Shown in pieces: positions 1-63,496 of a stretch of 64,000 nt of DNA. The notes beneath the pieces were generated by a model. The model had not been told where the DNA came from, ran no database searches, and was given only the letters and a program-made list of their open reading frames with translations. Position 1 is the first letter of the stretch. Each line of letters begins with the position of its first letter. The translations under genes and the position numbers were made by a program. The stretch comes from an uncultured Gemmatimonadaceae bacterium (lineage in GTDB: Bacteria > Gemmatimonadota > Gemmatimonadetes > Gemmatimonadales > Gemmatimonadaceae), in assembly GCA_963829055.1 (NCBI GenBank), contig CAWHHI010000006.1, forward strand, positions 384,001-448,000. Reading direction: 5' to 3'.

Positions 1-1319
1 CGCTCGTCGTTGCCGTGCATACGCGTGAGGTCGTCGGCACTGATGGGGTACGGGTAGATGCCGTACACCGGAATGCCCCGCGTGCGCCACGTCGAGGCGT
101 CCGTGCCCGCCTGGAACAGGTACGGGGTCACGTCGGCCGAGAACTGCTGGCGCGCGGATTTCTCCAGCGCGCGATAGAGATCCGTGTTCTCCGACGACGG
201 CGGCGTCACGCTCGCTGCCGCGTTAGGATTCGCCAACTTGATCTCGATAGCCGGATCGCCGACTACGCGCGTCATCTCGCCAACGAGATCAGCGGCGCTG
301 GCGCCGGGAATGAGCCTCGCGTTGATCGTCGCTTCTGCCGAGCCCGGGATGACGTTGCCGCGGAATCCGGCGTTCATGAGCACGGGGGCGAGCGTCGTCC
401 GGATGAGTGCGTGGAACAGCGGGTCCTTGCTGATCTCCTTGTCGGCTCGACGGATGCGTGCAGGGTCACCACTCACGAGATCAGCGAAGAACCCCGACAG
501 CGGCGGCGGGCTCGTCTTCGCCAGCGTCTCGAAGAATCGCCGAGTGGCCGGCGTTAGGTTGACCGGCGTCTCGTAGGTCGAGAGCTTCGCCATCGCCCGT
601 GACAGGGCGAAGATGGCGTTGTCGGGGCGCGGCATCGACGAATGGGTCGACGTCCCCTTCGCCGTGAGCACGATCGGCACAGACACCTTGTCGGCGGTCG
701 AGATGCTGACGTATCGAACGCGACCGTCGGCACCGGTGATGATCCAGCCGCCTTCGTTGAGCGCGAACTCCGCATCGATCTTGTTCCAGTGCTCGGCGGC
801 GAGCCACGACGTGCTGTAGCGCCCGTTCTCTTCGTCGGCCTCGGCGAGGAAGATCACGTCCCGATCGAGCGGCACCTTCCGCTCGGCCAGCATCATCGCG
901 GCGCGGGCGAATACCGCCATACCGCCTTTGAAGTCGATCGCGCCACGTCCGAAGACGTAGCCGTCTTTTACGAGGCCGGCGAACGGGTCGACTGTCCATT
1001 TCTCGCGCTCCACGCCGACGACGTCAGCGTGCGCGGCGATGAGCACGGGCCGCTTCGAGCCGTTGCCGCGCAGGCGGGCAATGAAGTGTGCCTTGCCCGT
1101 GTCTGGTGTCTGGACGATGTCGACGTCGAACCCGAGCGCCTTGAAGCGCGGCGCGAGCAGGTTCGCGATGCCACCTTCGTTGCCGGGCGGGTTCGACGTG
1201 TTGACGCGGATCAGCTCGACGAGCAGTGCTGCCGTGGGATCGCTCGGCGCCTGGGCGGCTGCGGGGCAGACAACAACGAGACTCAGGATCGTGGCAATCG
1301 AGCGAAGCGATCGCGTCAT
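1..1319 (-). CDS. M20/M25/M40 family metallopeptidase, secreted; runs off the left edge
   Basis: Translated by hand (absent from the ORF track because no stop lies in the window): MTRSLRSIATIL...NTSNPPGNE...AAHADVV...GRGAIDFKGG...ADEE...ALNEGG, which are M20 motifs. Confidence 0.9.
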   Translation of the reverse strand, partial: MTRSLRSIATILSLVVVCPAAAQAPSDPTAALLVELIRVNTSNPPGNEGGIANLLAPRFKALGFDVDIVQTPDTGKAHFIARLRGNGSKRPVLIAAHADVVGVEREKWTVDPFAGLVKDGYVFGRGAIDFKGGMAVFARAAMMLAERKVPLDRDVIFLAEADEENGRYSTSWLAAEHWNKIDAEFALNEGGWIITGADGRVRYVSISTADKVSVPIVLTAKGTSTHSSMPRPDNAIFALSRAMAKLSTYETPVNLTPATRRFFETLAKTSPPPLSGFFADLVSGDPARIRRADKEISKDPLFHALIRTTLAPVLMNAGFRGNVIPGSAEATINARLIPGASAADLVGEMTRVVGDPAIEIKLANPNAAASVTPPSSENTDLYRALEKSARQQFSADVTPYLFQAGTDASTWRTRGIPVYGIYPYPISADDLTRMHGNDE

Positions 1320-1321
1320 GT

Positions 1322-1426
1322 TGTCATCCCGAGGAACGTAGTGACGAGGGAGCTTCTCGAACGTCTTCGTGGCCAGGTCGGCTACGATGACATTACACAA
1401 GATCCCTCGCTACGCTCGGGATGACA
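1322..1426. repeat. REP-like palindromic element, TGTCATCCCGAG subtype
   Basis: TGTCATCCCGAG...GAGGGA...TCCCTCG...CTCGGGATGACA terminal inverted repeats; inner CGTGGCCAGGTCGGCTACGATGAC is shared with the copies at 11760 and 17783. Confidence 0.85.
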
Positions 1427-1437
1427 ATACGCTACGC

Positions 1438-1983
1438 TCAGCCTAACGCGGTGACGAACTTCGCGTCAGTCTCGATCTCCTCTGGCGTGTCGCGCGGCGA
1501 GTAGCGCGTCAGGACCCTGCCGTCGCGATTCACCAGGAACTTCGTGAAGTTCCACTTGATGGCTGTGGTGCCGAGCACGCCCGGTGCCTGCGACTTGAGC
1601 ACGGCGTACAGCGGATGCTCGTTCGGCCCGTTGACGTCGATCTTCGAGAACATCGGGAAGGTGACGTCGTACGTGAGCGAGCAGAAATTCCTGATCTCTT
1701 CCTCGTTCCCGGGCTCCTGATTCCCGAATTGATCGGACGGGAAGCCGAGCACGGTCAATCCGCGCGCGTGGTAGCGACGGTAGAGCGTCTCGAGACCCGT
1801 GTACTGCGGTGTGAAGCCACATTTGCTGGCGACGTTCACGATCAGGAGAACCTGTCCGCGGTAGGGCTCGAGTGTCGTCGTTTGACCGTCGATCGTGGTG
1901 ACGGGAATCGTGAATAGCGCACGAGCGCCAGCGTCGCGCTGGCCAACCGACGTGTCGTTCGTGTGTTCCGTATTCGGTTCCAT
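1438..1983 (-). CDS. Glutathione peroxidase family protein (Cys type)
   Basis: LIVNVASKCGFTPQY, GFPSDQFGNQEPG and IKWNFTKFLV motifs; start taken at MEPNTE. Confidence 0.93.
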   Translation of the reverse strand: MEPNTEHTNDTSVGQRDAGARALFTIPVTTIDGQTTTLEPYRGQVLLIVNVASKCGFTPQYTGLETLYRRYHARGLTVLGFPSDQFGNQEPGNEEEIRNFCSLTYDVTFPMFSKIDVNGPNEHPLYAVLKSQAPGVLGTTAIKWNFTKFLVNRDGRVLTRYSPRDTPEEIETDAKFVTALG

Positions 1984-2056
1984 GCCTAACGTCCCCGCGC
2001 GATGCGAGTGATGGCCACGATCTGCGGCGTGATGGCGAGACCACTGAGGAGATGCA

Positions 2057-2770: not shown

Positions 2771-4236
2771 CTAGGGCTGTACGCGAACGACCAGCGACTT
2801 GCCCCGCCACCGCTTTGGATCGACGCCAGGCACGCGCGTCACCGGCCGCTTGCCGCCACGCGGGAAGATCACTTCGACATCCACCGCGGCCTCCGACGGG
2901 AGACCGACGTGAACCGGCATCACGTTCTGCGCGTCGTAGCCTGACCCCGTATCGACGAGCCGAGTGGCGATGAGCCGGTGCGAGCCGGCGGTGAACACGC
3001 GCACCTCGGCGCCCGCGAGCGACGCATGGCCCCGCGAATCGACCACGGATATCGAGAGCGAGCGACGGGCAATGTTCGCGGCAAGATCGTTTCGCAGCAG
3101 CGAGTGCATGCCGTCCGGGCGCGAGCCCGTCAGCGCGAGGTCCATGTCGCCGTCGCGATCGAAGTCCGCCCACTGCACGCCGTGATCCGCCTGCAGCGCC
3201 TTCACGTTCTCGGGTGTCACGTCCTCGAATTTCGTGCCGGTGTTGCGGTACAGGTAGTCGCGATAGCTCACGCCGCCCGTGACCGTGCCGTTCACGTACA
3301 TGTCGAGCCGGCCGTCGTTGTCGAAGTCAGCCAACGCGCACGCGTCATCGTGCGACTCGATGTCGAGGCCCCACGCGGCGGACGCGTCCTCGAACTTTCC
3401 GCCGCCTCGGTTGAGGAACAGCCCCCTCCGTCCGTAGTTCGCCGTGACGATGTCGATGTGGCCGTCGCCGTTCACGTCCGCGGCGCAGGGTCGCACCGTG
3501 CCGTTCGTCGAGTCGTTAGGCATTCGCCCTCCCCACGCGACGCCACGCTCGGCCGCCACGTCGCTGAACTTTCCGGCGTCGTTGCGGTAGAGCGCGTTCG
3601 CGTCGCCGTCCATGTTCGCGAGGTAGAGGTCGAGGTCACCGTCCTCGTCGAAGTCGAACCACACGGCGCCGACGCTCTTCCGGCGGTCCGCGAGACCGAC
3701 GTCGGCCGCGACATCGGCGAACTTGCCGGCATCGTTCCGGAACATCACGTTAGGCCGATCGCGAAACGCGACGAACAGGTCGACGTCTCCGTCCCCGTCC
3801 GTGTCGACGAACGAGAGCTGGCGAACAGCGCCCGAGTCGCGTGCCACGCCAGCGGCCGCGGTCACGTCCGTGAACTTGCCGGCGTCGTTCCGATAAAGCT
3901 TCAGTACCGACTGAGGCCCAGGGGCGAATCCGACGAGGAGGTCGGGATCACCATCGCCGTCGTAGTCGCCCCACGCGCCGGCGCGTGTCGCGCGCGCGTC
4001 CGCGACGCCGGCAGCCGCTGCCGCATCGACGAGCGTTCCGGCATCGTTCCGGTAGAGTCGATTCGCCACGCCATTGAACCCGACGAACAGATCGACGTCA
4101 CCATCCCCGTCGTAGTCCGCCCACGCGTTCACGAGATTGCCGCCCGTGCGCCAGCAGGTCGGGCTGCACCGCGGTGAACCGCGGCGGCTCGAGCAGGAGC
4201 AGCGAGGCGATTGCGACCGCGAGCGAGAGGTTTCAT
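2771..4236 (-). CDS. CRTAC1-family FG-GAP repeat protein with ASPIC/UnbV C-terminal domain (indels near 5' end)
   Basis: Repeated W-x-D-(Y/F)-D-x-DGD-x-DL motifs; C-terminal GSGYDAQN...VHVGL; ATG overlaps the upstream TGA at 4233-4236. Confidence 0.85.
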
Positions 4237-5839
4237 CGAGCCCACGGCACCTGAGTTGATCGATAGAAGTTCACGCCTAACGCCGACAGCCGCGGTCCCT
4301 GCTCGCCGAGCCGACGCGAAAGGCGTCCCAGTCGCGCGCGGCCTGCGGCGACCATCCCACTTCCGCCAGCGCCGCGAGGCGCGGGAACGCCATGTACTCG
4401 TAGTCCTCGAGCTTGACGAGCGTCTCCGCCCAGAGCGGTGCCTCGACGCCTAACAAGCCGGCCTCGGGGACATCGGGTAACAACGTGGCAGGGTCCCAGT
4501 CGTACGCGTCCCGCACCTCGATCAGCCCGGCCCACTTGAGGCCGAGTACCGTTGCGCTGTCGTACTTCATGTCGAGGTACGTCTTCGGGCCTGGCGACAG
4601 GATGACCTTGCCACCGCGCGCCACGTGAACGGCGGCCGAGTCTCGCTTCCAGTGCTGCACGATCGTGTTCGCCGCGAGACTTCGCCGGCGCGATCTCGCC
4701 CCACCCGATCATCTGCTTGCCATTGGCGGCAACGATGCCCTGCACGCGCTCGACGAATCTCAGATACTGATCGTGCGTGAGCTTCTGCACCTCGTCGCCG
4801 CCCATGTGGAAGTACGGCGTGGGCACCAGCGCGGAGATCTCGCGGACGACGTCGTTGATGAACGTGTACACCGAGTCCTTCGTCACGCATAACGCGCTGA
4901 AGCCGACTTTCGTGCCGGTGTAGAGCGGGGGAGCCACGCCGTTGCAGTTCAGCTCCGGATAGGATGCGAGCGCCGCATTGGTGTGCCCGGGCATGTCGAT
5001 TTCGGGCACGACGGTGACGAAGCGGCTCGTCGCGTAGGCGACGATGTCCGAGAACTGCGCCTGCGTGTAGATAACCACCCGGCCCGCCACCCACCTGCGA
5101 GCTCCCTCCGATGGCGGCGAGGTTTGGCCGCGAAACGATCTCGATCCGCCACCCCTGATCGTCCGCGAGGTGCAGGTGCAGACGGTTCAGCTTGTACAGC
5201 GCGAGCAGATCGATGTAGCGCTTCACCGCTTCGGCATCGATGAAATGGCGCGAGACATCGAGCATCGCGCCGCGCCACGCGAACCGCGGCACGTCGCTGA
5301 TGCGAGCGCCTGTCATTCTGAGACGACGTTCGATGGCGCCACGATGCTCGATGGACCACGGCAGCAGCTGCCGGATCGTCTGCACACCGTAGAACAACCC
5401 GTTAGGCTGCGCGGCGGTCAGCGATGACGCCGTCTCGCGCCACGGCGAGCTCGTAGCCCTCGAGCCCGAGCGCGGTCTTGGACGGATCGAGCGCCAGCAG
5501 AATGCTACGCGGCGGCGCGGCCTCGCCCTCGGCGAGCGTTCGTGGCGGGAGGCGCCAGTGGGTCCGCCGAGCATGGTCGCGAGGTAGCTCGCGATCCGCT
5601 CGGCCCCAGCAGCCCCCGCCTGACGCGACGACCACTGCGGTGGTCGAGTCGATCGGTGAACGTGTCGGCGGGCGTACATCTGCATCGACGACGGCACCGG
5701 GACGATCGCGTGGATTGGACGCGCCGCGGCCACCGCGACGGGTGCCGTTACTGGTGGCGTCCGTCGCCCGCACGCCGTTGCCGTGAACGACGACGGCGAG
5801 CATGATCGCTCGGTCATCGCGGAGCTACGCTCCGACCAT
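4233..5839 (-). CDS. Beta-N-acetylhexosaminidase, GH20 (several frameshifts)
   Basis: Fragments PRFAWRGAMLDVSRHF, HLHLADDQGWRIEI, PEIDMPGH, FHMGGDE, GVEAPLWAE, FPRLAALAEVGWS. Confidence 0.9.
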
Positions 5840-5863: not shown

Positions 5864-7868
5864 CTATTTCGGGGTCAGTCCTGCTGCTTCGTACAACGCC
5901 TTCGACTCGTAGACGCGCCCCGCACGCACCACACGCTCGGTACGCCGGAGGTCCGTGATCCGCTCCGCCGGCTTCCCGTTCACGATGGCCAGATCGGCGA
6001 TCTTGCCGGGAGCGATACTACCATAATCCTTGTCATCCTTCATCACTCGCGCGGGGACGATCGTCGCGATCTGAAGCACGGCCGAGGCGGGGATGCCAGC
6101 GCGCTCGTAGACCTCGAGCTCTCCGTGGAGCGACAGGCCGGGGACGTTGTCCGTTCCGGGAATGAGCGTCACGCCGGCGTCGTACAGCCGCTTGAGCATG
6201 CGACGATAGTTCGCGCTCCCGGCTTCCGCACGCGCGGCTGCCTCAGGCGAGTCGGCTGGCCCTTCGCGCCATTCCGCGCTTCATGAGCGGCGGCATCCAG
6301 TCGAGCGTCGGTCCGAAGATCGGATCGTTCCCGTCGGGCAGCGGGTGCGAGCGATCCTGCCAGACGTTGAACGTTCCGTCCACCACCGTGTGCCGGTCGC
6401 GCAGAAACGAGATGAGCTCCGTGACCTGTGGCGCGTTCACGTCGAACGTCGGCGCGACGGCGGTCGCGACCTCCGGAGTACGCGCGCATTCGTCGGGACG
6501 TAGAGCGAGTCCTGGTAGAACGTGGAGAACAGGAAAGCGGCGTGCTGGAACTCGTCGTACCCGAGCTTGATGGCGGACTCGCACGGTGAGCCCGCGCGGG
6601 ATGTGCCCGCTCAGCCGCATGCCGCGCTTGTGCGCCTCCTCGGCGATCGTCGGCACGAGGTCAGGGTGTACGAGGTTGTAGAGCTTGATCTGCTTGTAGC
6701 CTAACGAGTCGTAGCGCGCCACCCAGGCGCGGGCCTCGTCCTCGGTGCGCACGAGCACCTCGCTCGGGCCGGCCCAGCGTGCCGGGGCCTTCGATGAAGC
6801 CGGCGAGGATGATGCGTGGCGAGAGCATCGTCCCGAGCCGAGCACGCTCGCGTTGCGAGACGGCGGCGTCGATGTCGGATGCCATGTCGCGCACCGACGT
6901 GATGCCCGCCGCCAGCTGCATCAGCCCGCTCTCTTCGCCGGTGAGGAACAGATGCGTGTGCATGTCCCACAGGCCGGGAATGACGGTCTTGCCCGTGGCA
7001 TCGATGACCGTCGCGCCGGCCGGTGTCTTCGACGGAGTCGCTCGGGCCGACGGCGGTGATGCGGTCGCCGGTGATGACGACGGACGTTCGCGGTCGGACG
7101 ACGCCCGCTCGCTGTCGAAGACGTTGCCGTTCCGGATGACGAGCGACTTCGGCGCCGGCGGCGTTAGGCGTCGCGCGATGGCCTCGGACTTCGTGATTCG
7201 AAGTGCGCTTCTCGATCTCGCGGAGCGCAGGCAGCACGCTCAGCCGCGTCGCGCGGCACGGTGATGAACCACTCGGCCCCGGTCGCGAAGAGCTCCTCCG
7301 GATTCGTCGAGCCAGACGGCGCTCGGTGGAGGTCGAGAGCCCGTCGATGAAGACGAGACGAATGCGCTTCTGCGCGCCGCCGACCGAGACGGTCGTGTCG
7401 GCGACGACTTCGGCGCGTCCGACTCCGTCCGGGATAGCAGCTCGAGCCGAGCGCTGCGGACGGCCGAGCAGGTAGTTGGCGCAGCCGCGCGTCGTCGTAC
7501 GGGGAGGTGGCGTCGAGAACGAAGAATGGAGCGTCGCTCGCTCGCGAACGAGGTGGTGTCCTCGCCGACGACCGACCGAACCGAGTCGCCGGTGAAGTCC
7601 ACGCGTTGCGTGACGTCGCCGAGTGCGCCTTCGGGGGTGACGCTACGAGTCTCGAGCGAGACGAGCTCGCCGTTCGCGGTACGAGTATCGGGTCTCGAAT
7701 GCGCGGCCCGCGCTGCCGATCCTGGTAGCGGAAGCGGACGATGATCGAGTCGCCGGCGGAGACGACGTGCATCTCGCCGGCGGGTCGCCCGTGGTTGAGG
7801 ACGATGTAGTGGGTCGAGTCGGCGGGCGGATGCGCGACCGCGAGGGCCAGAGCGAGGAGGGGGATCAT
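5864..7868 (-). CDS. Secreted amidohydrolase family protein (several frameshifts)
   Basis: Signal peptide MIPLLALALAVA; DMHTH; QIKLY; GTDN; GSIAPGKIADL. Confidence 0.8.
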
Positions 7869-8601: not shown

Positions 8602-8940
8602 GTGGCCGAACCGCTGGCGGTACTGCGAGGGACACTCGACGTCCTCGTGCTCAAGGCGCTGACCTGGGGGCCCATGCACGGCTTCGAGATCACCGCCTGG
8701 ATCGAAGCCCGGGCGACCGGCAACCTCGACATCGTCGACAGCGCGCTCTATCAGTCGCTCTACCGGCTCGAGGAGCGGCGCGCCATCACCGCCGACTGGG
8801 GTGTCACCGAGAACAACCGGCGCGCGCGCTACTATAGTATCAGCCCCGTCGGCCGCGCCGAGCTTCGCGCCGAGACCGCGCGCTGGAACCGGTACGCCGA
8901 GACGGTGACCGGCATCCTGAACACCCCGCAGCCGGCCTAA
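8602..8940 (+). CDS. padR: PadR-family transcriptional regulator (acidobacterial type)
   Basis: GTLDVLVLKAL...MHGFEI...LYQSLYRLE...WGVTENNRRARYYSI. Confidence 0.93.
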   Translation: MAEPLAVLRGTLDVLVLKALTWGPMHGFEITAWIEARATGNLDIVDSALYQSLYRLEERRAITADWGVTENNRRARYYSISPVGRAELRAETARWNRYAETVTGILNTPQPA

Positions 8941-8945
8941 CGCCG

Positions 8946-11683
8946 ATGCTGCCGCCGCGCATTCGCCGAGCGCTCCGCATTCCAGTCGGTCGCCGTCGCA
9001 CCGTCGAGATCGAGACGGACGACGAGATTCGCTTCCACCTCGCCATGCGCGCGGACACGCTGGTCGCGAGCGGGCTGTCGCGCGAGGCCGCTGAAGCCGA
9101 AGCGCTGCGGCGGTTCGGCGCGCTCGAGGAAGTTCGCCCTCAATTGCTCGCCGCGGCACGACACCGTGAGGAGAGTCTGACCATGTTCGAGCGCTTCGAC
9201 GCGCTGCGGGACGACGTCCGCTACGCGCTGCGCCAGCTTCGGCGCGCACCCGGCCTTCAGTGCAGCGCTCGCGCTGACGTTCGCGCTCGGCATCGGCGCG
9301 AATGCGACGATGTTCGAGATCCTCGATCGGTCTGCTGTTCCGTCCGCCCGCATACATGCCTGACGCGGATCGCGTCGGCCGCGTGTACCTGCGTCGTCCG
9401 CGCGGTGATGGGACCGAGCGCATCGACAACAACATCAGCTATCTCCGCTACACGGAGTTGCGCGATCACACCCGCGCGTTCGCTGCTGACGGCAGCCATC
9501 TATCAGGACGACCAGCGCATCGTCGGCTCGGGCGACAACGCGGAAGCACTCGCGGTGGGGCTGGTGAGCGCGAGCTTCTGGTCGCTGTTCGACGCCCGCC
9601 CGGAGCTCGGGCGGTTCTTCACCGCCGATGAAGATCGCGTGCCTAACGGCGCGACCGGTCGTCGTGCTCGGCTACGGTTACTGGCAGTCGCACCTCGGCG
9701 GCGAGCCGATCCGTGCTCGGACGCCAACTGCGCGTCGGTGGGCGGCAGTACACGATCATCGGTGTCGCGCCGAAGGGATTTCACGGTGTCTGGGCGACGA
9801 CGACGGCTGCGTACGTGCCGATCACGTCCGCGGCAGTGGACATGGGCGGTACGGACCGCTACTACCTGCAGCACAATATGTCGTGGCTCGAGATGATCGC
9901 GCGTCTCAAACCCGGCGTGTCGCCGGAGGTCGCGAGTGCGGAGCTCACGCGCGCCTACCGACAGAGCCGAGTGGACGCCGCCGCGACACAGCCGAAGGCG
10001 CAGCCTGTTCGGCCGCAGGATCTCGCGCTTGACGCGTGGCCAGTTCGCTCCGCTGCCGATGGATCGCGGGCCGAAGGCGTCGGACAGCGCGACGGTGGCC
10101 ACGTGGCTGGCCGGCGTGTCGGTCATCGTGCTGCTCATCGCGTGCGCGAACGTGGCCAACCTGCTGATCGCTCGTGGCATCCGCCGTCGTCGAGAGATCG
10201 CCGTTCGCATCGCGTTAGGCGTGAGCCGGAGCCGCCTGGTAGCGCAGCTTCTCACCGAGAGCGTCGTCGTCGCGGTGCTCGGCGGCGATGCTCGGGCTTG
10301 CGCTGGCGCACTGGGGCGGGGGCGCGATCCGCCGACTGCTCCTGCCGGAACGTGGATTGGTCGCTCGTGCCGGTGTTCGATGCGCGCGTGCTCCTGTTCA
10401 CCGGAACGGCAGCGATCGTCACCGGCCTGCTGACGGGGCTCGCGCCGGCCATGCACGCGCTTCGCTCCGACGTCAACGGCGCACTCAAGGCAGGCGAGCG
10501 GGAAGGCGGTGGACAACGAGCCCGAATTCGTACCGTCCTCCTGCTCTCGCAAGCGTCCCTGTCCGTCGTGCTGCTCGTCGGTGCCGCACTGTTCGTGCGC
10601 AGCCTGCATAACGTGGAAACGTTGCACCTCGGCTGGGATCCCGATCGCCTCGTGCATGTCGGATTGGACCTTCGCGGCCTCGAGATCAAACCGGAGGAGC
10701 GACGGGCGCTTCTGCAGCGCGCCGTGGAACGCGCGCGCGCGATGCCGGGCGTCGTCGAGCGTTTCCACGTTGATGAGCGTGCCGTTCTGGAGCACGTGGT
10801 CGGACAACGTGTTCGTCCCCGGAATGGACTCCGCGGATCACCAGCGGACGTTCGTGGTGAATCCCGTGGGCGATGACTTCTTTCCGACGATGGGCACACG
10901 CCTGCTGCGCGGCCGCGCCGTGAGCTCATCCGATCAGGAGAACGGACCAAAGGTCGCTGTGGTCAGCCAGTCCATGGGGAAGCTGCTGTGGAAGGGGAAG
11001 GATCCGATCGGCCAGTGCTTCCGACTCGGCGCGGACACGGCGCCGTGTCGCGAGGTGGTCGGCGTCGCCGAGGACATGACGTTCGGCGACATCAAGGACG
11101 ACGACGGCCTGCAGCTCTATATCCCGGCATCACAGGAACAGAACACAGGTACGATGGTGGTGCGCACGACCGGTGATCCACGTGCCATGGTCGTGCCGCT
11201 TCACCGGGAGATCCAGCGGCTGCTGCCGGGTATGGGCTACGCGCAGGTGCGGCCGCTCGCGTTCGTGCTCGATTCCGTTCTCCGCCAGTGGCGACTGGGC
11301 GCGACGATGTTCACGATCTTCGGCGTTCTGGCACTCGTGCTCGCGGCCGTCGGGCTGTACGGCGTGATCGCCTATGACGTCGCGCAACGCATGCGCGAGA
11401 TGGGCGTGCGGGTCGCGCTCGGCGCCCAGGCCTCGGACATTCGTCGGCTCGTGCTCTGGCAGGGCATGCGGGTCACGTCGGTCGGGAGTCGCGTTAGGCG
11501 TGGTGATCGCGTTCGTGACGGTGCAAGTACGTCGAGAAGCTGCTGTTCGCGACGCCGGCTCGAGATCCGCTCGCGTTCGGCGCCGCGGCGCTCGCAATTG
11601 TGCTGGTCTCGGTGTTCGCGACACTCATCCCCGCACGGCGCGCGACACGGGTGGATCCGATGGTGGCGCTGAGAGCGGAGTAG
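8946..11683 (+). CDS. Duplicated orphan ABC permease (ADOP; MacB/FtsX domains), frameshifted
   Basis: [19 protein letters not shown] segment, [34 protein letters not shown]-terminal [11 protein letters not shown]. Confidence 0.9.
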
Positions 11684-17753: not shown

Positions 17754-17782
17754 GCGTTAGGCAGAGCGAGCGAGGAGCATCG

Positions 17783-18602: not shown

Positions 18603-18614
18603 GTCTCTCTCCGC

Positions 18615-19594
<980 letters not shown>

Positions 19595-53410: not shown

Positions 53411-56400
53411 ATGCCGCGGCAATTGTCGGGTTCGAGCACGGCACGTCTGATCGCGGGCATAGCAATGTGCCTAACGTTTACCGCACCGGCTCTGCTCTCG
53501 GCACAGGGTGCCGGGCGCATTCGTGGGAGGGTCTCGGACGCCGACGACAAGGCGCCGCTCTCCTCCGTTCAGATCTCGGTCGTGGGGACCAGCCTGGGCG
53601 CCGTGACCGGCGCGACCGGCCAGTACATCATCAACGGCGTCGCGCCCGGTCAGGTCACGCTGCGCATCCGCCGCATCGGCTACGCCAGCATGACGCAGCC
53701 GGTGACCGTTCCGGCGGGCGGCGAAGCCACCGCCGACATCGTCATGACGAGGGCCGCGACACAGCTGTCCGAGGTGATCACCACCGCGACCGGCGATGTC
53801 GAGAAGAAGACCTACGGCAACGTCGTGGCGACGATCAACGCCGACTCCCTCGTCGGCAAGGCGCCGATCACGAACGTCAACGAACTGCTTCAGGCGCGCA
53901 CCGCGGGCGTGCAGGTGATTCAGGGGACGGGACAGACCGGCGCCTCGAGCTCGATCCGCATTCGCGGCGCCAGCTCGCTCTCCCTCACCAACGAGCCGCT
54001 CATCGTCATCGACGGTCTCCGCTTCGACAACTCCCCCGCGTCCAGCAATTTCAGCTCGATTCGCGTCAACCGACTCGGCACGCTCAATCCCGACGAGATC
54101 GAGTCGATGGACATCATCAAGGGCCCTTCCGCAGCCGCGCTCTACGGAACGGCGGCCGCGAACGGCGTCGTCGTGATCACGACCAAGCGGGGGAAGGCCG
54201 GCTCCGCGAAGTGGAGCGCGTTCGGCGAAGGCGGCGCCGTGTCGCAGAACGCCGCCTTCACGTCGAACTATCAGGGGTGGGGCACGAACCTGAACGCCGC
54301 CGGACAGCGCGTCGGCCCCCCGGTCCAGTGCAAGGTGTTCGCGGCAGCGCGCCAGGCATGCGTCCTCGACTCGCTGACCTCCTACAATCCGTGGAACGCG
54401 AAGGAGACCGACCCGTTCCAGACGCAGGGGCGTTATGCGGCCGGGCTCCAGGTGTCAGGCGGTAGCGACCAGCTTCGTTACTTCCTCTCCGGCGAGCACC
54501 AGGGCGAAACCGGTCCCTACACCATGCCGGATTACGAGATCGACCGCCTCACGACGCTTCGCGGCACCCGTCCGCGCGATCGGGAGATCACCCCGAACGA
54601 GCTGACGATGAACTCGGCGCGCGGAAACTTCTCGCTCAGCATCAAGCCGAACCTCACGCTCGATGTGAACTCGGGCTACATCCGGCGCGACCTCTACAAC
54701 GCGTTCGAGGGGACGTTCTTCGCGGGATGACGTTCCAGTACATGACCGGTCCGGGCTTCAAGAACGCCACCAACGGGCTACAGCGTGAGTTCGTGGGTGA
54801 CGTGTTCGGTGTCGAGGGCAAGCTGCGCGATGACCGGTTCACCGGCGGCGCCACGCTCAACTGGCAACCCAAGACCTGGCTCACTGGACGCGCGATCGTG
54901 GGAATCGACCAGACGAATTCCTTCGGGTATCGCCAGCAGTTGAAAGGCGAGGGACCGCAGGTCGGTGTGTCGTGGGGGCCCATCTCCAACGAAGGTGGAA
55001 AGGACTACGACCGCTCGAACAACGCGCGCTACACGTTCGACATCGGCGCGACCGCGACCAAGGACATCACGCCGGTGCTCAACTCGCGCACGTCGGTAGG
55101 CGCGCAGCGCTTCTTCGACGCGCAGTACCAGTCACAGGGCCGAGGCTACGGCCTGCCGCCCGGGGCGTCGACTCCCAACTCGGCGCGCCAGCGCGAGTCG
55201 TGGGAGTTCACCACTGAGGAAGCAACGTACGGTGCCTTCATCGAGGAGGCGCTCGGCTGGCGCGACAAGCTTTTCCTCACGGCCGGCGTCCGCACAGATC
55301 AGACGAGCGCATTCGGTCGCGAGGCGGCGCGTACTGTGTATCCACGCGCCGCGGTTTCGTACGTGATCTCGGATGAAGATTGGTTCCCGAAACTGTCATT
55401 GCATGGACCGACTCCGCCTGCGCATGGCCTATGGCAAGGCGGGTGTGCAGCCGAGTACCATCGCGGCGCTGCAGTACCTCGGTGCGGCGGCGTTCCCGAC
55501 TGGAGCCGCGGCCGATGAGCCGGGCCTTCGCATTGCTTCGATCGGCAACCAGAACCTGAAACCGGAAGTCACGACGGAATACGAAGGCGGCCTGGACCTC
55601 GGCTTATGGGATGGTCGCGTCGCCATCGAGGCGACGCTGTTCCGCAAGCTCTCCAAGGACGCCCTCTACAACCGGCCGCTTCCTCCGTCGTACGGCACGG
55701 CCATCGGATCCGCGTCGCCCACGCAGTGGCAGAACCTCGCCGCGGTGGAGAACAAGGGGACCGAGCTGACGGTCGACATGCAGATCCTTCGCAATCCGGC
55801 GTTTACATGGGACGTGCGTGTCAACGGCTCCCTGCTCAAGAACAAGCTCGTCGACGCCGGCGGCGTGCCTCTGCCGACCGCGCCCGGCGCGCGCAACGAG
55901 GTCGGGTATCCGCTGTTCGGACTGTGGGATCGCGAGATCAAGTCGTACAGCGACAAGAATGGCGATGGCCTGATCGGCGACGATGAGATCGACGTGTCGG
56001 CCGGGCTCGCGTTCCGTGGATCATCGCTCCCACAGCGCGAGGCCGGTTTCGGCACCACGGTCGGCCTGTTCAAACGCGCGCTGCAGTTCTCCATGCTGAT
56101 GGACTACCGCGGCGACTTCTACAAGCGCTGGCAGTACGAGGAGTGGCGCTGCCAGTCGAGCGGCAACTGCGCGGCCGTGAACGACCCGAAGGCTCCGCTG
56201 GCGGACCAGGCCGCGGCCACCGCCGCGAACAGCTCGTCCAAGCGCACGATCTGGGGCTACTACGTGCCTAACGACTTCCTCAAGCTCCGCGAGGTGTCGG
56301 CGACGTATACGCTGCCGGCCGATCTGTCGCGGCGCTGGCTGCGTTCACGCACCGCGTCGATCAACTTCGCCGCGCGCAACCTCGGCTACCCCTGGAGCAA

Positions 56401-56564: not shown

Positions 56565-57911
56565 ATGACTAATAGAACAGCTCGGACGTTCGCTGCCCTC
56601 CTGCTCGCCATTGGAGTCGCAGCGTGCAGCACCTCGGACCTGCTCGACGTAGAGACGCCCGACCAGATCACCCCTGACCAGGCCGGAAGCGCGGTTGGCG
56701 CGGCTGCGCTCCGCGTGTCGGCCATCGGCAACTTCGCCGCGTTCTACGGCGGTGATTATGGCGGGTCGTTCCACGGCGTGAGCATCACCAGCGGCATGCT
56801 CACCGACGAGATCGAGTCGGCTCGCGGTGGGACGGAGCATTTGGACAGCCGCGCCCAGAACGAGGGTGTGCAACCGCTCAGCACGACGTGGGCGTTCGTG
56901 GGGCAGTCCACGACGCAGACGGTTCGCGCCATCAAGGCACTGAAGGAGTTCGCGCCCGAAGGGACCGCCACGGAGAAGTCGACGAAGGCCACGCAGATCG
57001 GTCATCTGTACGCGCTGCAGGGCTTCGCGTACGCGATTCTCGCCGAGAACTACTGCAGCGGCATCCCAATCGCGAATGCGGATGACATCAACCCGAAGAC
57101 GGACCTGCTCACGACGGCGCAGTTGTACACGCGGTCGCTGGCGTACTTCGACACCGCGGCGACCACGTTAGGCACCACGACGGCCGACCAGCCATTCCGG
57201 AACGCCGTCGCGGTCGGACGTGGACGCGTGCTCGTCGACCTCGCCCGGTATGACGAAGCGGCAGCGGCGGTGACTACCGTCCCTACCAACTTCAGCTTCG
57301 CCGTCAGCTACTCGGCGACGTCCGTCGTGAACGCCATCTACGACTGGATGAACGCGACGCTGAACTACGCGCCCGCGGACAAGGAAGGCATCAACGGGAT
57401 GGACTTCATCACCGCTCGCGATCCGCGCGTGACGGTCATCCGCAACGCGGCGGGGGCTCCCACGCCACGAGCCGGGCAGGATGGAGCGCAGCATTACACG
57501 CAGACCGTCTTCGCGACGGCCGGCGCACCGATGCCGCTCGCGACGGGTGTCGAGGCGCGCCTGATCGAGGCCGAGGCTGCGCTCAAGAAGGGCGATGCGA
57601 CGACGTACCTGGCGAAGATGAACGACGCGCGCACGATCGTGAGCGCGCTGACCCCGCTGACCGACCCCGGCTCGGCGGTGGCGAGAGAGAACCTGCTGTT
57701 CCGCGAACGGGCTTTCTGGTTCTGGGGAACGGCCCATCGGCTCGGCGATCTTCGCCGTCTCGTGAAGGACTACAAGCGAGGCGCGGAGACCGTGTATCCC
57801 ACGGGACCGTATTTCAAGGGTGGGGCGTACGGCACGGACCTCGTCCTGATTCCGGCGCAAGCCGAGAAGAACAACGTGGATTTCCAGGGCTGCTCCGCGA
57901 CCACGTTGTAA
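56565..57911 (+). CDS. SusD/RagB-like lipoprotein
   Basis: VAAC lipobox; EARLIEAEA; RERAFWFWGTAHRLGDLRR; follows susC. Confidence 0.88.
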   Translation: MTNRTARTFAALLLAIGVAACSTSDLLDVETPDQITPDQAGSAVGAAALRVSAIGNFAAFYGGDYGGSFHGVSITSGMLTDEIESARGGTEHLDSRAQNEGVQPLSTTWAFVGQSTTQTVRAIKALKEFAPEGTATEKSTKATQIGHLYALQGFAYAILAENYCSGIPIANADDINPKTDLLTTAQLYTRSLAYFDTAATTLGTTTADQPFRNAVAVGRGRVLVDLARYDEAAAAVTTVPTNFSFAVSYSATSVVNAIYDWMNATLNYAPADKEGINGMDFITARDPRVTVIRNAAGAPTPRAGQDGAQHYTQTVFATAGAPMPLATGVEARLIEAEAALKKGDATTYLAKMNDARTIVSALTPLTDPGSAVARENLLFRERAFWFWGTAHRLGDLRRLVKDYKRGAETVYPTGPYFKGGAYGTDLVLIPAQAEKNNVDFQGCSATTL

Positions 57912-58047
57912 TGCGCTAGCGGGTGCGCACGGCGCGCGATCCCACCGGGGTCGCGCGCTCGTGCATCGAGCAATTTGGACCTAACGCGGCCTTGACGGCT
58001 CCTGGCTGACGCGCGAGGGTTAGCCACCCCGATTTCCCGAGGACCGC

Positions 58048-59514
58048 ATGTCTCGACTCGCGTCACGCGCTCGCCTGCTGCCCCTCAGTTTCGTCGCGGC
58101 GACCGCAATCGTCGCGCAGAGCCCACCCGCCGCTTCGAGAGCATCGACGGATCCCGACGTGGTCGGGGCGGAGCGCCTCTTCTCCGCCTGGCTGGAGGGA
58201 CAGATCGCCTACCGCGGGCTGCCGGGGATCGCCGTCGGCGTGGTCGCGGACCAGGAGCTCGTATGGGCGGCCGGATTCGGGCACGCCAACGTCCAGGCAA
58301 AGCGGCCGATGACCCCGGACACGAAGTTCCGCATGGCCTCGCACAGCAAGCTGTTCACGGCCACCGCCATCATGCAGCTGCGGGAGCAGGGCAAGCTCCG
58401 ACTCGATGATCCGGTTTCCAAATACCTGCCATGGTTCAAGGTGAAGCCGGCAGGGGATGACGACGGCCCGATCACCATCGAGCAGCTCCTCGGTCACGCG
58501 TCAGGCCTCCCACGTGAAGCAGGCCCGCACTGGACCACAATGCAGTTCCCGACCGCCGACGAGATCCGCAAGCTGATCGCCGACCGGGAAGCGCCGTTCC
58601 CACCGCAGGAGCGGTGGAAGTACTCGAACCTCGCCTACACGATCGCCGGCATGGTGGTGGAGCAGGTGAGCGGTGAGCCGTGGGCCGACTACGTTCAGCG
58701 CCACATTTTTCAGCCGCTCGGCATGAGCGCGTCGAGCGTGGACCGCAACGTCGAGGGACTCGCGGTCGGGTACGGGCGGCGCATGCCGGACGGGTCGCGT
58801 GAGGTGTTGCCCTTCATGGACGCGCGCGGGATGGCGGCGGCGACCGGCCTCACCTCGACCGTCGAGGACATGGCGAAGTTCGTCTCGGCCCAGTTCCGGA
58901 AAGGTCCCATGGGCGGTCGCCAGATCCTGAGCACCGGCTCGCTGCGGGAGATGCACCGCGTCCGCTCGCTGGAGAACGACTGGACCTCGGGCACCGGAAT
59001 CGGGTTCGCGGTGAGCCGGGTGCGTGACAAGACGTATGTGGGTCACGGGGGCGGCTACCCTGGCTACACGACCCAGACGCTGATTCAGCTCGACGACAAG
59101 GTCGGCGTGATCGTGCTGACCAACACGAACGACTCGAACCCGAACGACATCGCACGCCAGCTGATGGCTACCGTGGGAGCAGCGGTGGCGAAGGCATCGG
59201 CCGCGAAGCCGAAGGTGGTCGCGTGGGACCCGTCGTGGTCCCGCTTCGTGGGGCTCTACCGCGGTGTGTTCGGCGACAGCCAGGTGGTGCTGCTCAACCA
59301 GCGCCTGGTCGTGATCACGCCTAACGCGGCGAACGTCGACAATCCGGTCACCCTCGAGCCCCTTGGCGAGGGACGCTTTCGCTACGTGGCGGCTTCCGGT
59401 GGCGGGCCGGTGGGCGAAGTGGTGCGGTTCGTCGAGGAAGGCGGGCGGGTGGTGCGCATGATCACGGGCGACAGCTATGTGGACCGGGTGCCGGACAGCA
59501 CCGGATCGAAGTGA
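58048..59514 (+). CDS. Serine hydrolase, beta-lactamase/peptidase S12 family
   Basis: FRMASHSK (SxxK), YSN, HGGG motifs. Confidence 0.9.
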   Translation: MSRLASRARLLPLSFVAATAIVAQSPPAASRASTDPDVVGAERLFSAWLEGQIAYRGLPGIAVGVVADQELVWAAGFGHANVQAKRPMTPDTKFRMASHSKLFTATAIMQLREQGKLRLDDPVSKYLPWFKVKPAGDDDGPITIEQLLGHASGLPREAGPHWTTMQFPTADEIRKLIADREAPFPPQERWKYSNLAYTIAGMVVEQVSGEPWADYVQRHIFQPLGMSASSVDRNVEGLAVGYGRRMPDGSREVLPFMDARGMAAATGLTSTVEDMAKFVSAQFRKGPMGGRQILSTGSLREMHRVRSLENDWTSGTGIGFAVSRVRDKTYVGHGGGYPGYTTQTLIQLDDKVGVIVLTNTNDSNPNDIARQLMATVGAAVAKASAAKPKVVAWDPSWSRFVGLYRGVFGDSQVVLLNQRLVVITPNAANVDNPVTLEPLGEGRFRYVAASGGGPVGEVVRFVEEGGRVVRMITGDSYVDRVPDSTGSK

Positions 59515-60037: not shown

Positions 60038-60961
60038 TCAGATGATCGGCCCGACAGCCTCCAATGCATGTCGCAGCTTCTCGGGGTTGCGGACGAGGTG
60101 AAGCGCCCGGATGCGTCCGTCTTCCACGTCGACCGTCGTGGCCGTGGTGACTACGCCGTCCTCGAACGTCAGGATCGCTGGCTGGCCGTTGAGCCGCGTT
60201 AGGCGTCGGACCGCTGTCGGACCCACCTTGCGCCAGACGCCGAGCAGGAAGCGCGAGACGCGGTCCGAGCCGTCGAGCCGGTTGCGAGCGGCGCGCGCGA
60301 TGTCCGCCGCCGTCGGCGGCGAGCGTCACGTCCGGTGCGAGCAGCGCGAGCAGGGCGGGCGCGTCGTCCGCCGAGAGCGCGGCGAGATACTGTTCGAGGA
60401 TCCGCTCGTGCGCATTGGGCGGCGTAGGCACGCGCGGCCGGTCGGCGCGTACGCGGTCGCGTGCGCGATGCACCATTGGCGGATCGCGTCCGGCCGTCGC
60501 CCCAGGATGTGCGCGATCTCCGCATAGTCGGTCCCGAAGACTTCGCGCAGGAGAAACGCGGCTCGCTCTTCCGGAGCCAGACGCTCCAGAAGCACGAGTA
60601 GAGCGACGGACAGGTCGGATGCGAGCTCCGCTTGATGATCCGGAGCAGGCTCAGCGTTAGGCACCCCCGGCGCGTCGAGGGCAATCGGTTCCGGGAGCCA
60701 CGGACCAGGGTAGGCCGCCCGTTCGGTGCTGAGTCGTCGGAGCCGGTCCACCGCGAGGCGGCTGACGACGGTCACCAGCCACGCCTCCGGCGACCGCACC
60801 ACCTGGCGGTTGGTCTGTTGCCAGCGAAGGTAGGCCTCCTGCACCACGTCCTCGGCCTCATCCATGTCGCCGAGCATCCGGTAGGCGAGCCCGAGAAGCC
60901 GCGGGCGGTGTTCGAGGGCGCTCTCAGCCGAGAGCTCCTCCAGTGAGTTTCGAGCGATCAT
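60038..60961 (-). CDS. sigJ: ECF41 / SigJ-family sigma factor with SnoaL-like extension (frameshifted)
   Basis: AYRMLG..EAEDVVQEAY, YPGPWLPEP, DGGG and NPEKL motifs. Confidence 0.9.
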
Positions 60962-61555: not shown

Positions 61556-61715
61556 GGAGGTGATCATGGATAGGCGTGTCCTTTCAACCAGTTCCGTGCG
61601 TGCAGGCGCGGGGCATCACGCGGCGTTCGCTGTCGGAACGCCGATAGAGATCGACGCCGTAGCCGATCGGGCAGACGATGCGACTACCGCGCGCGGCAGC
61701 GAGACGGCAAGACGA

Positions 61716-63008
61716 ATGACAACGACGAGGATCCTCGTACTGGGCGGTGGATTCGGCGGCGTCGCCGCGACACGCGAGATCGAACGACTGTTTCGCGACA
61801 AGCGGGATGTCGAGATCACGCTCGTGAGCCGCGACAACTTCTTCGTGCTCACACCGCTGCTGTTCGAAGCGTGTACCGGCGTCCTGGAGCTGCGGCATTG
61901 TGCGCAGCCCATCCGTCCTGCGTTGCGACGAGCGCGGTTCGTCGAGGCGAGCGTCGGGCACGTGGACGTCGAACGCCGCGTCGTCCACGCCGTGGCCGCG
62001 GAAGGCGTCTCGTACGAGCTTCCGTACGACCATCTCATCGTTGCACTCGGCGCGACGACGAATCAGACGCTGATTCCTGGTTCCACGAACGCGTTCACGT
62101 TCAAGACGATGGCCGACGCACTCGTACTCAGGAACCACCTGATCGAGCGCTTCGAGCGTGCGGATGCGGCGTCGGATCCGATGGTCCGCCGTCGCTGCCT
62201 GACGATCGTGGTGATCGGCGGCGGGCTGGTCGGCGTCGAGCTCCTCGGCGAGCTGACGGCGTTCGCGGATGATGTGCTTCGCTACTACCCGCGGTTACAT
62301 CGAGATGAAGTGCGCTTTCACCTGTTCGAGGCCGGCAAGCGCATCCTGCCGGAGATCGACCCGACGCTCGCGGAGGAGGCGGCGCGCGTGCTCGAGCGCC
62401 GCGGGGCGGACATCCGCGCCACGACGCCCGTGCGGTCGATCGAGCCGGGGTACGTCCATCTCGCGGGTGAGACGATCGAGGCGGCGACCATCGTGCTGGC
62501 GGCGGGCGTCGTGCCTAACGCTATCGCGACTCGCATCCCCGTCGCCCACGACGAGCGTGGACGCATTGCCGTCGACGCCACGATGCGGAGCCAGAGTCAC
62601 CCGGAGGTCTGGGCGCTCGGCGACTGCGCGGCCATCCCGTCACCGGACGGTCACCTGTATCCCGCGCTGGCGCAGCACGCGACGCGCGAAGCGCGACAGG
62701 TCGCGCGGAACGTTGCGGCCGTCGTCGGCAGGCGCACGCCTACCGCGTTCGTCTACCGCACGCTCGGCACCATGGCGTCGCTCGGACACACCGACGCCGT
62801 CGCGACCGTGATGGGCGTGCGCCTAACGGGATTCCCCGCGTGGTGGGTGCGACGGACGTATTACCTCATGCAGATGCCGCGCTGGGACCGACGCCTTCGG
62901 ATGGTGCTCGACTGGACGGTGGCGCTGTTCTTCCGGCCGGATATCACGAAGGTGGATCTTGCTGTCGAACAGGATCAGGTGCTTCGTGCCCCTAGTGGGA
63001 CGAGTTGA
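61716..63008 (+). CDS. ndh: Type II NADH dehydrogenase-like FAD/NAD(P) oxidoreductase
   Basis: LGGGFGG, YDHLIVALG, IGGGLVGVE, WALGDCA, GTMASLG. Confidence 0.85.
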   Translation: MTTTRILVLGGGFGGVAATREIERLFRDKRDVEITLVSRDNFFVLTPLLFEACTGVLELRHCAQPIRPALRRARFVEASVGHVDVERRVVHAVAAEGVSYELPYDHLIVALGATTNQTLIPGSTNAFTFKTMADALVLRNHLIERFERADAASDPMVRRRCLTIVVIGGGLVGVELLGELTAFADDVLRYYPRLHRDEVRFHLFEAGKRILPEIDPTLAEEAARVLERRGADIRATTPVRSIEPGYVHLAGETIEAATIVLAAGVVPNAIATRIPVAHDERGRIAVDATMRSQSHPEVWALGDCAAIPSPDGHLYPALAQHATREARQVARNVAAVVGRRTPTAFVYRTLGTMASLGHTDAVATVMGVRLTGFPAWWVRRTYYLMQMPRWDRRLRMVLDWTVALFFRPDITKVDLAVEQDQVLRAPSGTS

Positions 63009-63054
63009 AGCGAATGTTGAGAGCAGGCGATTCTGGCCGCAGAGCCAGAATTGG

Positions 63055-63496
63055 CAAACCCTGTCCACGACGGCGCTCGTCCACGAGGCCTACCTCCGGC
63101 TCGTGGACCAGACGCGCGCGCAGTGGGCCGACCGGGCGCAGTTCTTCGCCGTGGCCGCGCACGTGATGCGACGCGTGCTCGTGGATCACGCCGGCGTCAT
63201 CGCGCGGGACGGCGTGGCGGCGTGCATCGGCGCGGCGGTCTCGCTGGACGTCGCTCGAGTCGAGCAGACGCTGGAAGCCTCGCCACCGGCGAGCGCGCCA
63301 ACGTCCTCTTGGCGATGGACGAGGCGCTCGAGCGGCTCGCGGCGCTGGATTCGCGACAGGCGCGCGTCGTGAGTGCCGCTTCTTCGGAGGGCTGACGGAG
63401 TCGGAGACGGCGGAGGCGTTAGGCGTGACCGCACGCACGGTCGCGCGTGACTGGGTGAAAGCGCGCGGGTGGCTGTACCAGGAGCTTGTCCGATGA
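63055..63496 (+). pseudogene. ECF sigma factor (TIGR02999-like, kinase-associated), N-terminus missing, frameshifted
   Basis: TLSTTALVHEAYLRL...FFAVAAHVMRRVLVDHA; DEALERLA; FFGGLT..ETAEALGV..RTVARDW. Confidence 0.8.

Follow-up and report, generated by a model that had tools for sequence, protein, structure and literature searches.

An octamer written through a Gemmatimonadaceae genome

Genome-wide words of the uptake type have, to our knowledge, been known for decades only from two proteobacterial families, as the DNA uptake sequences (DUS) of the Neisseriaceae and the uptake signal sequences (USS) of the Pasteurellaceae. Each consists of a short non-palindromic word that occurs about once per 1-1.5 kb, equally on both strands, lies mostly within genes in tolerant reading frames, is lineage-specific with dialects among lineages and is lacking in foreign DNA; for USS a spacing more even than chance has also been reported. 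The receptor of the Neisseria uptake sequence is a minor pilin. Chi sites and the FtsK-orienting polar sequences (KOPS) or architecture-imparting sequences are oligomers, about 8 bp long, with which core DNA is enriched, and all Chi sites and KOPS that we know of show replication-linked polarity; HIP1 of cyanobacteria is a palindromic octamer that is hyper-abundant in genes irrespective of frame. Here we analyze an 8-mer, GCCTAACG (hereafter the word), in a stretch of 64,000 nucleotides from an uncultured Gemmatimonadaceae bacterium (the window; positions 384001-448000 of contig C6 in assembly G000, which comprises 7,784,024 bases in 20 contigs; other G numbers denote comparison genomes). The word resembles DUS and USS in most of these respects and, like the self-recognition uptake tags of Neisseria and Haemophilus, it is written through the organism's own genes against their codon habits. 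It shares the over-representation of Chi and KOPS without their polarity, and the abundance of HIP1 within genes of any frame without its palindromic form, so that two orientations of the word can be distinguished.

The window holds 57 exact copies, 27 on the forward and 30 on the reverse strand, the same numbers at the same positions as a first-pass annotation had counted by hand, and a further nine near-copies retain the CCTAAC core, where that annotation had given about eight. Dinucleotide-preserving shuffles of the window yielded a mean of 1.29 copies and a maximum of 5, and none of the 100 shuffles reached 57. The whole genome carries 5,004 copies (2,457 on the plus and 2,547 on the minus strand), compared to 50-149 per strand predicted by Markov models of order 0-3, in which the word and its complement are the top two 8-mers by z-score. 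The density is 0.48-0.80 per kb across all 20 contigs; copies are evenly distributed along genes, and the numbers found in individual genes come close to a Poisson distribution.

Enrichment was also assessed against a codon-aware null in a set of 5,339 coding sequences (CDS), obtained with our own caller based on open reading frames (ORFs) and codon usage. The set spans 5.05 Mb, the many frameshifted genes limiting its coverage to 65% of the genome. When synonymous codons were shuffled within each CDS, 126 copies were expected and 2,918 observed, a 23-fold excess, and the enrichment proposed from the window thus holds genome-wide against both kinds of null. The word is present at 2,918 of the 12,544 CDS sites (23.3%) at which it could be written silently, and more than half of the genome's CTAA tetramers (56%) belong to a full copy. 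Nearly half of the TTA codons (1,208 of 2,470; 49%) sit within the word, and where leucine stands in the context xCG-Leu-GGC, TTA is chosen in 1,208 of 2,661 cases (45%) vs. 1.5% overall. By our own gene calls, 176 of 692 TAA and 137 of 1,411 TAG stop codons lie inside it. An example from the window is the motif R-x-A-L-G of FtsX-type permeases, which is spelled GCG-TTA-GGC (Ala-Leu-Gly) in four paralogues, at 10213..10220 (minus strand, V-R-I-A-L-G), 21603..21610 (minus, V-R-L-A-L-G), 22824..22831 (minus, V-R-M-A-L-G) and 24843..24850 (plus, in a minus-strand gene, V-R-S-A-L-G), and GCG-CTC-GGC in two others, at about 11418 and about 23490. This codon contrast had been pointed out in the first-pass annotation and was verified here. 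Together with the TTA statistics it supports the conclusion, also drawn there, that the pressure for the word works at the level of DNA and not of protein. The size and kind of the enrichment fit no mutational habit.

For 5,002 copies the local reading frame was judged by codon statistics in the 150 nt to either side. Leu-Gly readings were the most frequent (1,241), followed by Pro-Asn (818), Leu-Thr (566) and Val-Arg (400), and the two stop-containing frames accounted for 87 and 77 copies, only where the coding signal ends. At most two of the 5,002 copies had a coding signal on both sides in a stop frame, and 1,633 had no clear coding signal at the threshold used. The use of several frames plus stops that was first noticed in the window is a feature of the whole genome.

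No position flanking the genomic copies carries more than 0.13 bits of information, and the word is therefore discrete and not a portion of a longer repeat. Among its one-letter variants, two that differ at position 1, ACCTAACG (827 copies, 17-fold enriched) and CCCTAACG (428 copies, 9-fold), one that differs at position 8, GCCTAACA (435 copies, 15-fold), and GCATAACG (583 copies, 7.7-fold) are enriched as well. No variant at position 2, 4, 6 or 7 exceeds expectation, and at position 5 only one of the three does, GCCTGACG (1,763 copies), by about 2-fold. The word is strict at positions 2 and 4-7 and loose at positions 1, 3 and 8. Several interior variants are mildly depleted (observed/expected, O/E, 0.4-0.6), and in the genome-wide counts of one-letter variants no enrichment of decay-type transitions was seen at the strict positions.

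The word had been described as non-polarised on the strength of the window, and this is borne out by the genome: over 77 bins of 100 kb no strand polarity was detected (chi-square 84.8, df 77, p = 0.25), and the correlation with GC skew is marginal (rho -0.23, p = 0.046). Polarity with strand or replication was likewise not detected in a Verrucomicrobial genome that also carries the word (see below).

Copies of the word avoid one another at short range. Compared to an exponential distribution, gaps below 20 bp number 10 vs. 65 expected, those of 20-60 bp 30 vs. 127, those of 60-150 bp 94 vs. 274 and those of 150-300 bp 319 vs. 422. The same deficit appears relative to 200 random draws of an equal number of sites from the silently permissive CDS sites, where 12 gaps below 60 bp were observed and 100 ± 9.5 expected, 36 vs. 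134 ± 11 at 60-150 bp and 141 vs. 202 ± 13 at 150-300 bp, with an excess at 300-2,000 bp; none of the 200 draws was as extreme as the observed spacing. The short-gap deficit is repeated in G014, a relative from another genus, and in relatives within the genus.

Conservation was examined in six contigs from four species of the same genus, about 235 kb aligned with G000 at about 77% nucleotide identity. Shared copies make up 65 of the 147 in G000 and 65 of the 116 in the relatives, while no more than 19.0% of 8-mer windows overall match exactly, and opposite an unshared copy the partner genome mostly has an ordinary-codon spelling. The 24 protein pairs compared between G000 and G014 have 2 of 12 and 2 of 31 copies in common, the background being 8.4%. 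The word-poor relative G008 has the word at none of 62 orthologous sites, and amino-acid identity between G000 and G008 is 63.7% at word codons (137 of 215) vs. 67.2% elsewhere. The sharing above background within the genus, combined with the few copies shared between genera, indicates that the word is kept within a lineage and was placed independently across lineages, mostly through silent or tolerated changes.

The word is a real sequence and not an artefact. The G000 assembly does have many frameshifts, as might be expected if the word came from error-prone long-read sequencing or assembly, but we give that explanation practically no chance, and it is refuted by the respect of the copies for reading frames together with the following results. 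Positions 20001-26000 of the window were found, at 37-60% of the sequence words sampled, in 20 public runs from soil, rhizosphere and sediment belonging to 16 studies. Alignment of four independent public metagenome runs, from four studies, to this stretch covered 9 of its 10 copies, a single run (X1) bridging 9 of 10, and the runs concur at the copies examined: none is affected by any of the 40 differences listed, among 395, between the public-run contigs and the stretch. The word is also present in the fragmented, short-read-style assemblies of relatives and in metagenome-assembled genomes (MAGs) named as MEGAHIT assemblies, and no one-letter neighbour is depleted enough to have been its miscalled source. 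A simple base-calling substitution, already considered unlikely in the first-pass annotation, is thus discounted by independent assemblies as well as by the frames. The same assembly furthermore contains a 45 kb stretch (C6:~10,000-55,000) of 70-73% G+C with not a single CCTAAC. It encodes ftsK, aroC, trpG, trpD, DAHP synthase and pepA, second copies of which, 46-60% identical, occur elsewhere in G000. Since it carries housekeeping genes with divergent second copies, this stretch is foreign or chimeric DNA, probably a chimeric join or DNA from a different organism that entered the bin, and it provides a negative control from within the assembly.

Distribution across two phyla and identity with the attC core

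Among 41 close relatives, all seven genomes of the genus have 2,501-5,112 copies and G014, the richest of this first set, has 6,360. Six have 177-605 copies, exceeding a reversed-word control, two (G018 and G021) have 173-194 copies, at or below that control, and the remainder have 6-65. In a sample of 301 Gemmatimonadota genomes at least 80% complete, 14 are rich in the word (at least 300 copies): 10 of 71 in the family of G000, counting G000 itself, 4 of 125 in a second family and none of 105 elsewhere. The four rich genomes of the second family all belong to one genus. Within one genus, two genomes (G245 and G302) have 3,896 and 4,141 copies and another (G298) has 66. These tallies include the unpublished G013, G090, G129 and G208, all of which are word-poor, and no claim depends solely on them. 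Gemmatimonadota genomes with intermediate counts use the identical spelling at lower density, with no alternative spelling. The first-pass annotation had proposed a genome-wide, lineage-specific signal, and the mapping confirms this, the distribution across the phylum being patchy.

A sampled scan of sequence collections for two copies 400-430 bp apart gave, among the matches listed, mainly Gemmatimonadaceae and MAGs of Chthoniobacterales/Verrucomicrobiota. The Gemmatimonadaceae MAG fragments are 75-79% identical to G000 in nucleotide sequence, and one further fragment is 88% identical, which fits the placement among Gemmatimonadota assumed in the first-pass annotation. Four Verrucomicrobial genomes have 1,378-3,510 copies vs. 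240-360 of the reversed word, and 4 of 61 Chthoniobacterales genomes sampled are rich. The 8-mer is the same as in every Gemmatimonadota lineage sampled, with a dialect at the ninth base, which is A in 80% of Chthoniobacterales copies vs. 25% in G000; in G041, 1,741 of 2,136 copies are spelled GCCTAACGA. Genomes classed as word-rich are, among Gemmatimonadota, those of genera g1 and g74 and G014, G245, G302, G309, G170, G198, G297, G126, G136 and G303 and, among Verrucomicrobiota, G041-G044, G355, G380 and G368. A DDE_3 (IS630-type) transposase of G041 (L395:19526-19870 and L340:9682-10164) is 67-69% identical to one on contig C11 of G000, a sign of mobile DNA common to Verrucomicrobial and Gemmatimonadaceae genomes. 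On contig C4 of G045, a genome named as Acidobacteriota, many same-strand pairs of the word lie exactly 25 bp apart and belong to some repeated element.

In word-poor relatives the few copies are clustered on one strand at intervals of about 550 bp, and these clusters are integron cassette arrays. Long arrays of this kind were seen at five loci, L001-L005 (G027:C95, C80, C43; G025:C3), with an attC site of about 100 nt and of one conserved type every ~550 bp. The attC sites of G027 and G025 start with GCCTAAC followed by G in 39 of about 48 cases and with GTCTAACG in 7 of about 48, and they end in GTTAGGC or GTTAGAC preceded by T. The most frequent R'' box of the cassette arrays in this order, taken with the base that follows it, is therefore letter for letter the word. 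The core consensus of attC is RYYYAAC for R'' and GTTRRRY for R', according to PMC12901181. The fit of the word to this consensus, noted in the first-pass annotation, is thus matched by actual attC sites in relatives that begin with the word.

The copies in the genome have a different setting from those in the arrays. They are isolated in ordinary genes, and among them we found none of the structure of attC, that is, no L boxes, hairpin partner, array or link to intI. The variant tolerated by attC is not tolerated in the genome, where GTCTAACG occurs 24 times (O/E 0.42). The integron integrase TIGR02249 is above cut-off in 24 of the 41 relatives, rich and poor, G000 included; it was not found in G004, only fragments were found in G014, and many word-poor genomes are positive. 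A simple detector, which would miss true attC sites, returned only one hairpin bounded by inverted words in G000, and one lone attC-like site was seen as well. The lone site (C10:188779-188839) has no surrounding array and is 92-93% identical over 60 nt to Lysobacter/Luteimonas records (L037, L038, L088). At C18:97494-97548 a near-perfect G+C-rich hairpin is flanked by the word and its complement, and it looks like a terminator or a bare attC skeleton.

No clear word-rich phage was found among at least 119 stretches of viral contigs that match the pair pattern. The dense matches in viral contigs are one-strand arrays of small ORFs, i.e. cassette arrays. In the IMG/VR contigs L153 and L177/L178 (one strand) and L216/L217 (both strands), small ORFs that each terminate in the word are densely arrayed, and the arrays probably represent integron cassette arrays rather than phage genes.

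Possible explanations and the search for a reader

Taken together, the discreteness of the word, its strand symmetry, its spacing, its maintenance with turnover, its absence from foreign DNA, its apparent dialect and its patchy spread fit DNA uptake sequences best among the known kinds of genomic word, and this candidate of the first-pass annotation remains the best fit. We tentatively propose that the word is a "self" signal resembling a DNA uptake sequence and spread by transfer bias, a possibility that we prefer on comparative grounds without holding it with confidence. In such a model, the 8-mer would be recognised in double-stranded form by a sequence-specific DNA-binding protein in the course of gene transfer, the likeliest step being the import of environmental DNA by the type IV pilus/ComEC competence machinery, and fragments bearing the word would be transferred and recombined more frequently. 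Over long times this bias, a molecular drive possibly aided by selection, would fill the tolerant sites of the organism's own genes, and since a second copy on the same short fragment would bring little gain, copies would come to be spaced apart. The repulsion between copies is predicted by a benefit that saturates per fragment but not by a process that affects every site independently. We infer both that a protein reader exists and that the biased step is uptake or another step of transfer.

The word differs from DUS and USS in several ways. It is only 8 bp long, without the flanking preferences known for USS, no receptor was found for it, and its copies are seldom paired in inverted orientation close to the ends of genes (about 13 of 40 close pairs). 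It is also nearly unchanged in two phyla, patchy within each, and identical to the inverse core of integron attC sites.

The genome encodes ComEC, DprA, a ComEA-like HhH protein and a type IV pilus cluster with seven pilin-like genes, and ComEC is present in all four word-rich Verrucomicrobial genomes. Two tandem, near-identical major-pilin genes lie in the pilus cluster (C12:401935-402920). The search for genes co-occurring with the word, which had been suggested along with the first description, did not single out a reader: the pilins profiled, integron integrase and type IB topoisomerase do not follow word richness. Three of the seven pilin-like genes were profiled as possible receptors (C11:105384-105809, C3:516826-517212 and the PilW-like C12:400494-401408), and all three have equally good full-length homologues in word-poor genomes. 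RecC was found in 1 of the 41 relatives and not in G000, alpha-type AddB was above cut-off in none of the 41 (other AddB types and AdnAB lay outside the search), and Vsr occurs in four of the 41, all word-poor, and in no word-rich genome. In each of the word-poor G013, G015 and G017 the bacterial type IB topoisomerase, which is related to tyrosine recombinases, is present in two copies, and G014, the richest genome, has no more than a fragment of it. A HerA_C/DUF853 ATPase is present in all eight rich relatives of the first set but also in five poor ones, and was not found in the rich genomes G245, G302, G309 and G355. In a cross-phylum screen, 1.4 Mb (35%) of G041 was compared with all ORFs of G000, giving 86 pairs of at least 52% identity, 77 of which were scanned in Pfam; the topoisomerase and the HerA_C ATPase were the two leads from this screen, no shared reader passed the phyletic test, and with 35% of G041 covered and the genes of G000 damaged by frameshifts one would be easily missed.

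Several of these points weigh against a signal of the uptake type. No reader was found, as none of integron integrase, the pilins profiled, RecC, alpha-type AddB, Vsr, topoisomerase IB and HerA-like ATPase tracks the word. ComEC occurs in 40 of the 41 relatives, rich or poor alike, and competence genes therefore do not discriminate rich from poor; competence genes also match in non-transformable controls. We know of no transformation in these phyla, and in open-access full text and bioRxiv we found no paper tying them to uptake sequences. Among the matches listed in the same sources for the 8-mer itself, which were primers or otherwise unrelated, no account of the word as a genomic signal was found, in agreement with the earlier remark that it was not recognised as described. 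All lineages sampled in the two phyla share one spelling, the ninth base excepted, and the uptake-sequence families known to us are less uniform. The spacing effect is weaker in the two Verrucomicrobial samples, where no repulsion is seen beyond 60 bp: in the 1.4 Mb examined of G041 the short-gap deficit is limited to gaps below 60 bp (2 vs. 26), gaps of 300-1,000 bp are in excess and those of 2-4 kb too few, and a 200 kb sample of G044 shows little spacing effect. Finally, the exact identity of the word with the attC inverse core is real and is not accounted for by uptake.

This identity is the natural starting point for a link to integrons, in which the word would be read by an integron integrase or a related tyrosine recombinase, or would be held equal to the attC inverse core for cassette traffic. 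In addition to the match with the commonest R'' box and the fit to the published consensus, such a link could draw on the frequency of the integrase in the order, on integrons reported from both phyla in PMC8618304, and on the same specificity over two phyla, which suggests an external standard. We nevertheless consider it unlikely, given that the presence of the integrase does not follow the word, that the genomic copies lack both attC structure and conserved flanks, and that the variant accepted by attC is not enriched in the genome. The insertion of cassettes at genomic sites (attG) moreover requires only GWT, as stated in bioRxiv 10.1101/2022.09.11.507474, and some 5,000 active recombination sites within genes would presumably be harmful. 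The recombinase site among the earlier candidates is accordingly disfavoured. A somewhat more probable, though still rather unlikely, alternative is an intracellular self or processing signal, in which a repair, recombination or defence machine travelling along DNA recognises the word by a Chi-like logic and selection keeps at least one copy, in either direction, per short stretch. Over-representation, absence from foreign DNA, even spacing and above-average conservation would suit a signal needed at short distance, and equal orientations would presumably suit two-ended breaks. The word, however, lacks the replication-linked polarity of the Chi sites and KOPS known to us, RecC was not found in G000 and alpha-type AddB was above cut-off in none of the 41 relatives, and a 23-fold codon-aware enrichment with 23% occupancy far exceeds what is known for Chi.

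Even spacing, strand symmetry and uniform density on the 20 contigs and along genes would also be compatible with binding sites of an abundant chromosome-organising protein of 8-bp specificity, kept at regular intervals. This seems quite improbable to us, as no nucleoid protein is known to us whose sites number in the thousands and are fully specified over 8 bp, the positions of the sites are not conserved between genera, and G298 thrives with 66 copies where G245 and G302, of the same genus, have about 4,000. Less probable again is a by-product of mutation or repair bias on each site alone, for example by methylation-directed very-short-patch repair. The depleted interior variants look as if they had been drained into the word, and the patchy distribution is like that of restriction-modification genes, but such a bias predicts no interference between neighbours, and short gaps are 3- to 8-fold depleted; the mutual spacing therefore weighs against it. 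The restriction of Vsr to word-poor relatives, the A+T-rich core of the word, which opposes the G+C pressure of the genome, and the transition variants at strict positions, which are not enriched, speak against it too. The repulsion between copies and the distribution of Vsr also disfavour the methyltransferase- or repair-driven motif proposed earlier as a candidate.

A combination of uptake and integrons deserves mention, although we regard it as decidedly doubtful. A horizontally spread reader, whose specificity is that of the attC inverse core, may act in the DNA import of scattered Gemmatimonadaceae and Chthoniobacterales. It would preferentially capture integron cassettes from soil DNA, and the genomes of its carriers would be filled with the word as a side effect. 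Cassettes have the highest natural density of the word, one or two per ~550 bp. If true, a reader that fishes for cassettes would link natural transformation to integron cassette traffic and would account for the one spelling in two phyla.

Should the word indeed be of the uptake type, it would be a third case, found in abundant and mostly uncultured soil phyla, crossing a phylum boundary and spelled like an integron recombination core. DNA self tags would then be more widespread than believed, and the word would help to trace gene flow in soil communities and would serve directly as a marker sequence when these genomes are binned or searched for foreign DNA. The patchy spread should make the reader findable through comparative genomics, as within the genus of G245, G302 and G298.

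Copies and genes in the window

The permease motifs described above are part of a larger number of Leu-Gly readings in the window. Those on the minus strand are at 21005..21012, 22065..22072, 22290..22297, 35905..35912, 49756..49763 and 57166..57173. Plus-strand copies read as Leu-Gly on the other strand are at 34479..34486, 39262..39269, 40348..40355, 44913..44920, 48365..48372, 50263..50270 and 52400..52407, and the plus-strand copy at 1441..1448 is read as xCG-TTA-GGC (Leu-Gly) in a gene of the other strand, with a signal in the 3' flank only. Pro-Asn readings were found on the minus strand at 3514..3521 and 3748..3755 (both G-CCT-AAC-G), 16219..16226, 17252..17259, 24155..24162, 32048..32055 and 40665..40672, and on the plus strand at 9641..9648 (G-CCT-AAC-G, signal in the 5' flank), 56266..56273, 59319..59326 and 62513..62520. 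Leu-Thr is read on the minus strand at 25719..25726 (GC-CTA-ACG), 46727..46734 and 60197..60204 and on the plus strand at 62821..62828. The reading C-GTT-AGG-C (Val-Arg) applies to the minus-strand copy at 11492..11499 and, on the other strand, to the plus-strand copy at 12197..12204.

Stop codons supplied by the word were verified at the three places where they had been claimed: as GCC-TAA at 8935..8942 (plus strand), ending a plus-strand gene, and at 20331..20338 (plus), ending a PadR-family gene, and as CGT-TAG at 18613..18620 (plus), ending the minus-strand gene 18615-19538. Stop readings also occur at 4275..4282 (plus; CGT-TAG in a minus-strand gene, a GH20 fragment) and at 5400..5407 (minus; GCC-TAA, with coding on the 5' side only), and the minus-strand copy at 17755..17762 adjoins the end of the ORF 16494-17753. 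The coding signal is unclear within 150 nt for the plus-strand copy at 1984..1991 and likewise unclear at 6699..6706, 26705..26712, 47664..47671, 49574..49581 and 53469..53476 on the plus strand and at 7162..7169, 25884..25891, 34144..34151, 50539..50546, 60655..60662 and 63417..63424 on the minus strand. The frames of the two flanks disagree at 12553..12560 (plus; a gene junction or frameshift), 31609..31616 (plus), 32375..32382 (minus) and 44179..44186 (minus).

Among the near-copies, variants at position 1 are represented by TCCTAACG at 221..228 (minus), by CCCTAACG at 38224..38231 (minus) and 43877..43884 (plus) and by the tolerated ACCTAACG at 552..559 (minus) and 57979..57986 (plus). The tolerated position 8 variant GCCTAACA lies on the plus strand at 4448..4455, 33520..33527 and 42171..42178, and GCCTAACC at 44543..44550 (minus) retains the CCTAAC core.

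A PadR-family regulator gene is followed by large permease genes of the MacB/FtsX type at 19479-25979, and several paralogues of the latter occur in the window. The assembly is rich in indel errors: a GH20 glycosidase gene is split between two overlapping frames at 4233-5817, and a MacB/FtsX permease gene is likewise divided over two overlapping frames at 20341-23089. Directly 3' of the copy that ends the PadR gene, at 20339, contigs from three independent public runs have an extra C, which reflects either an indel error of the G000 assembly or a strain difference.

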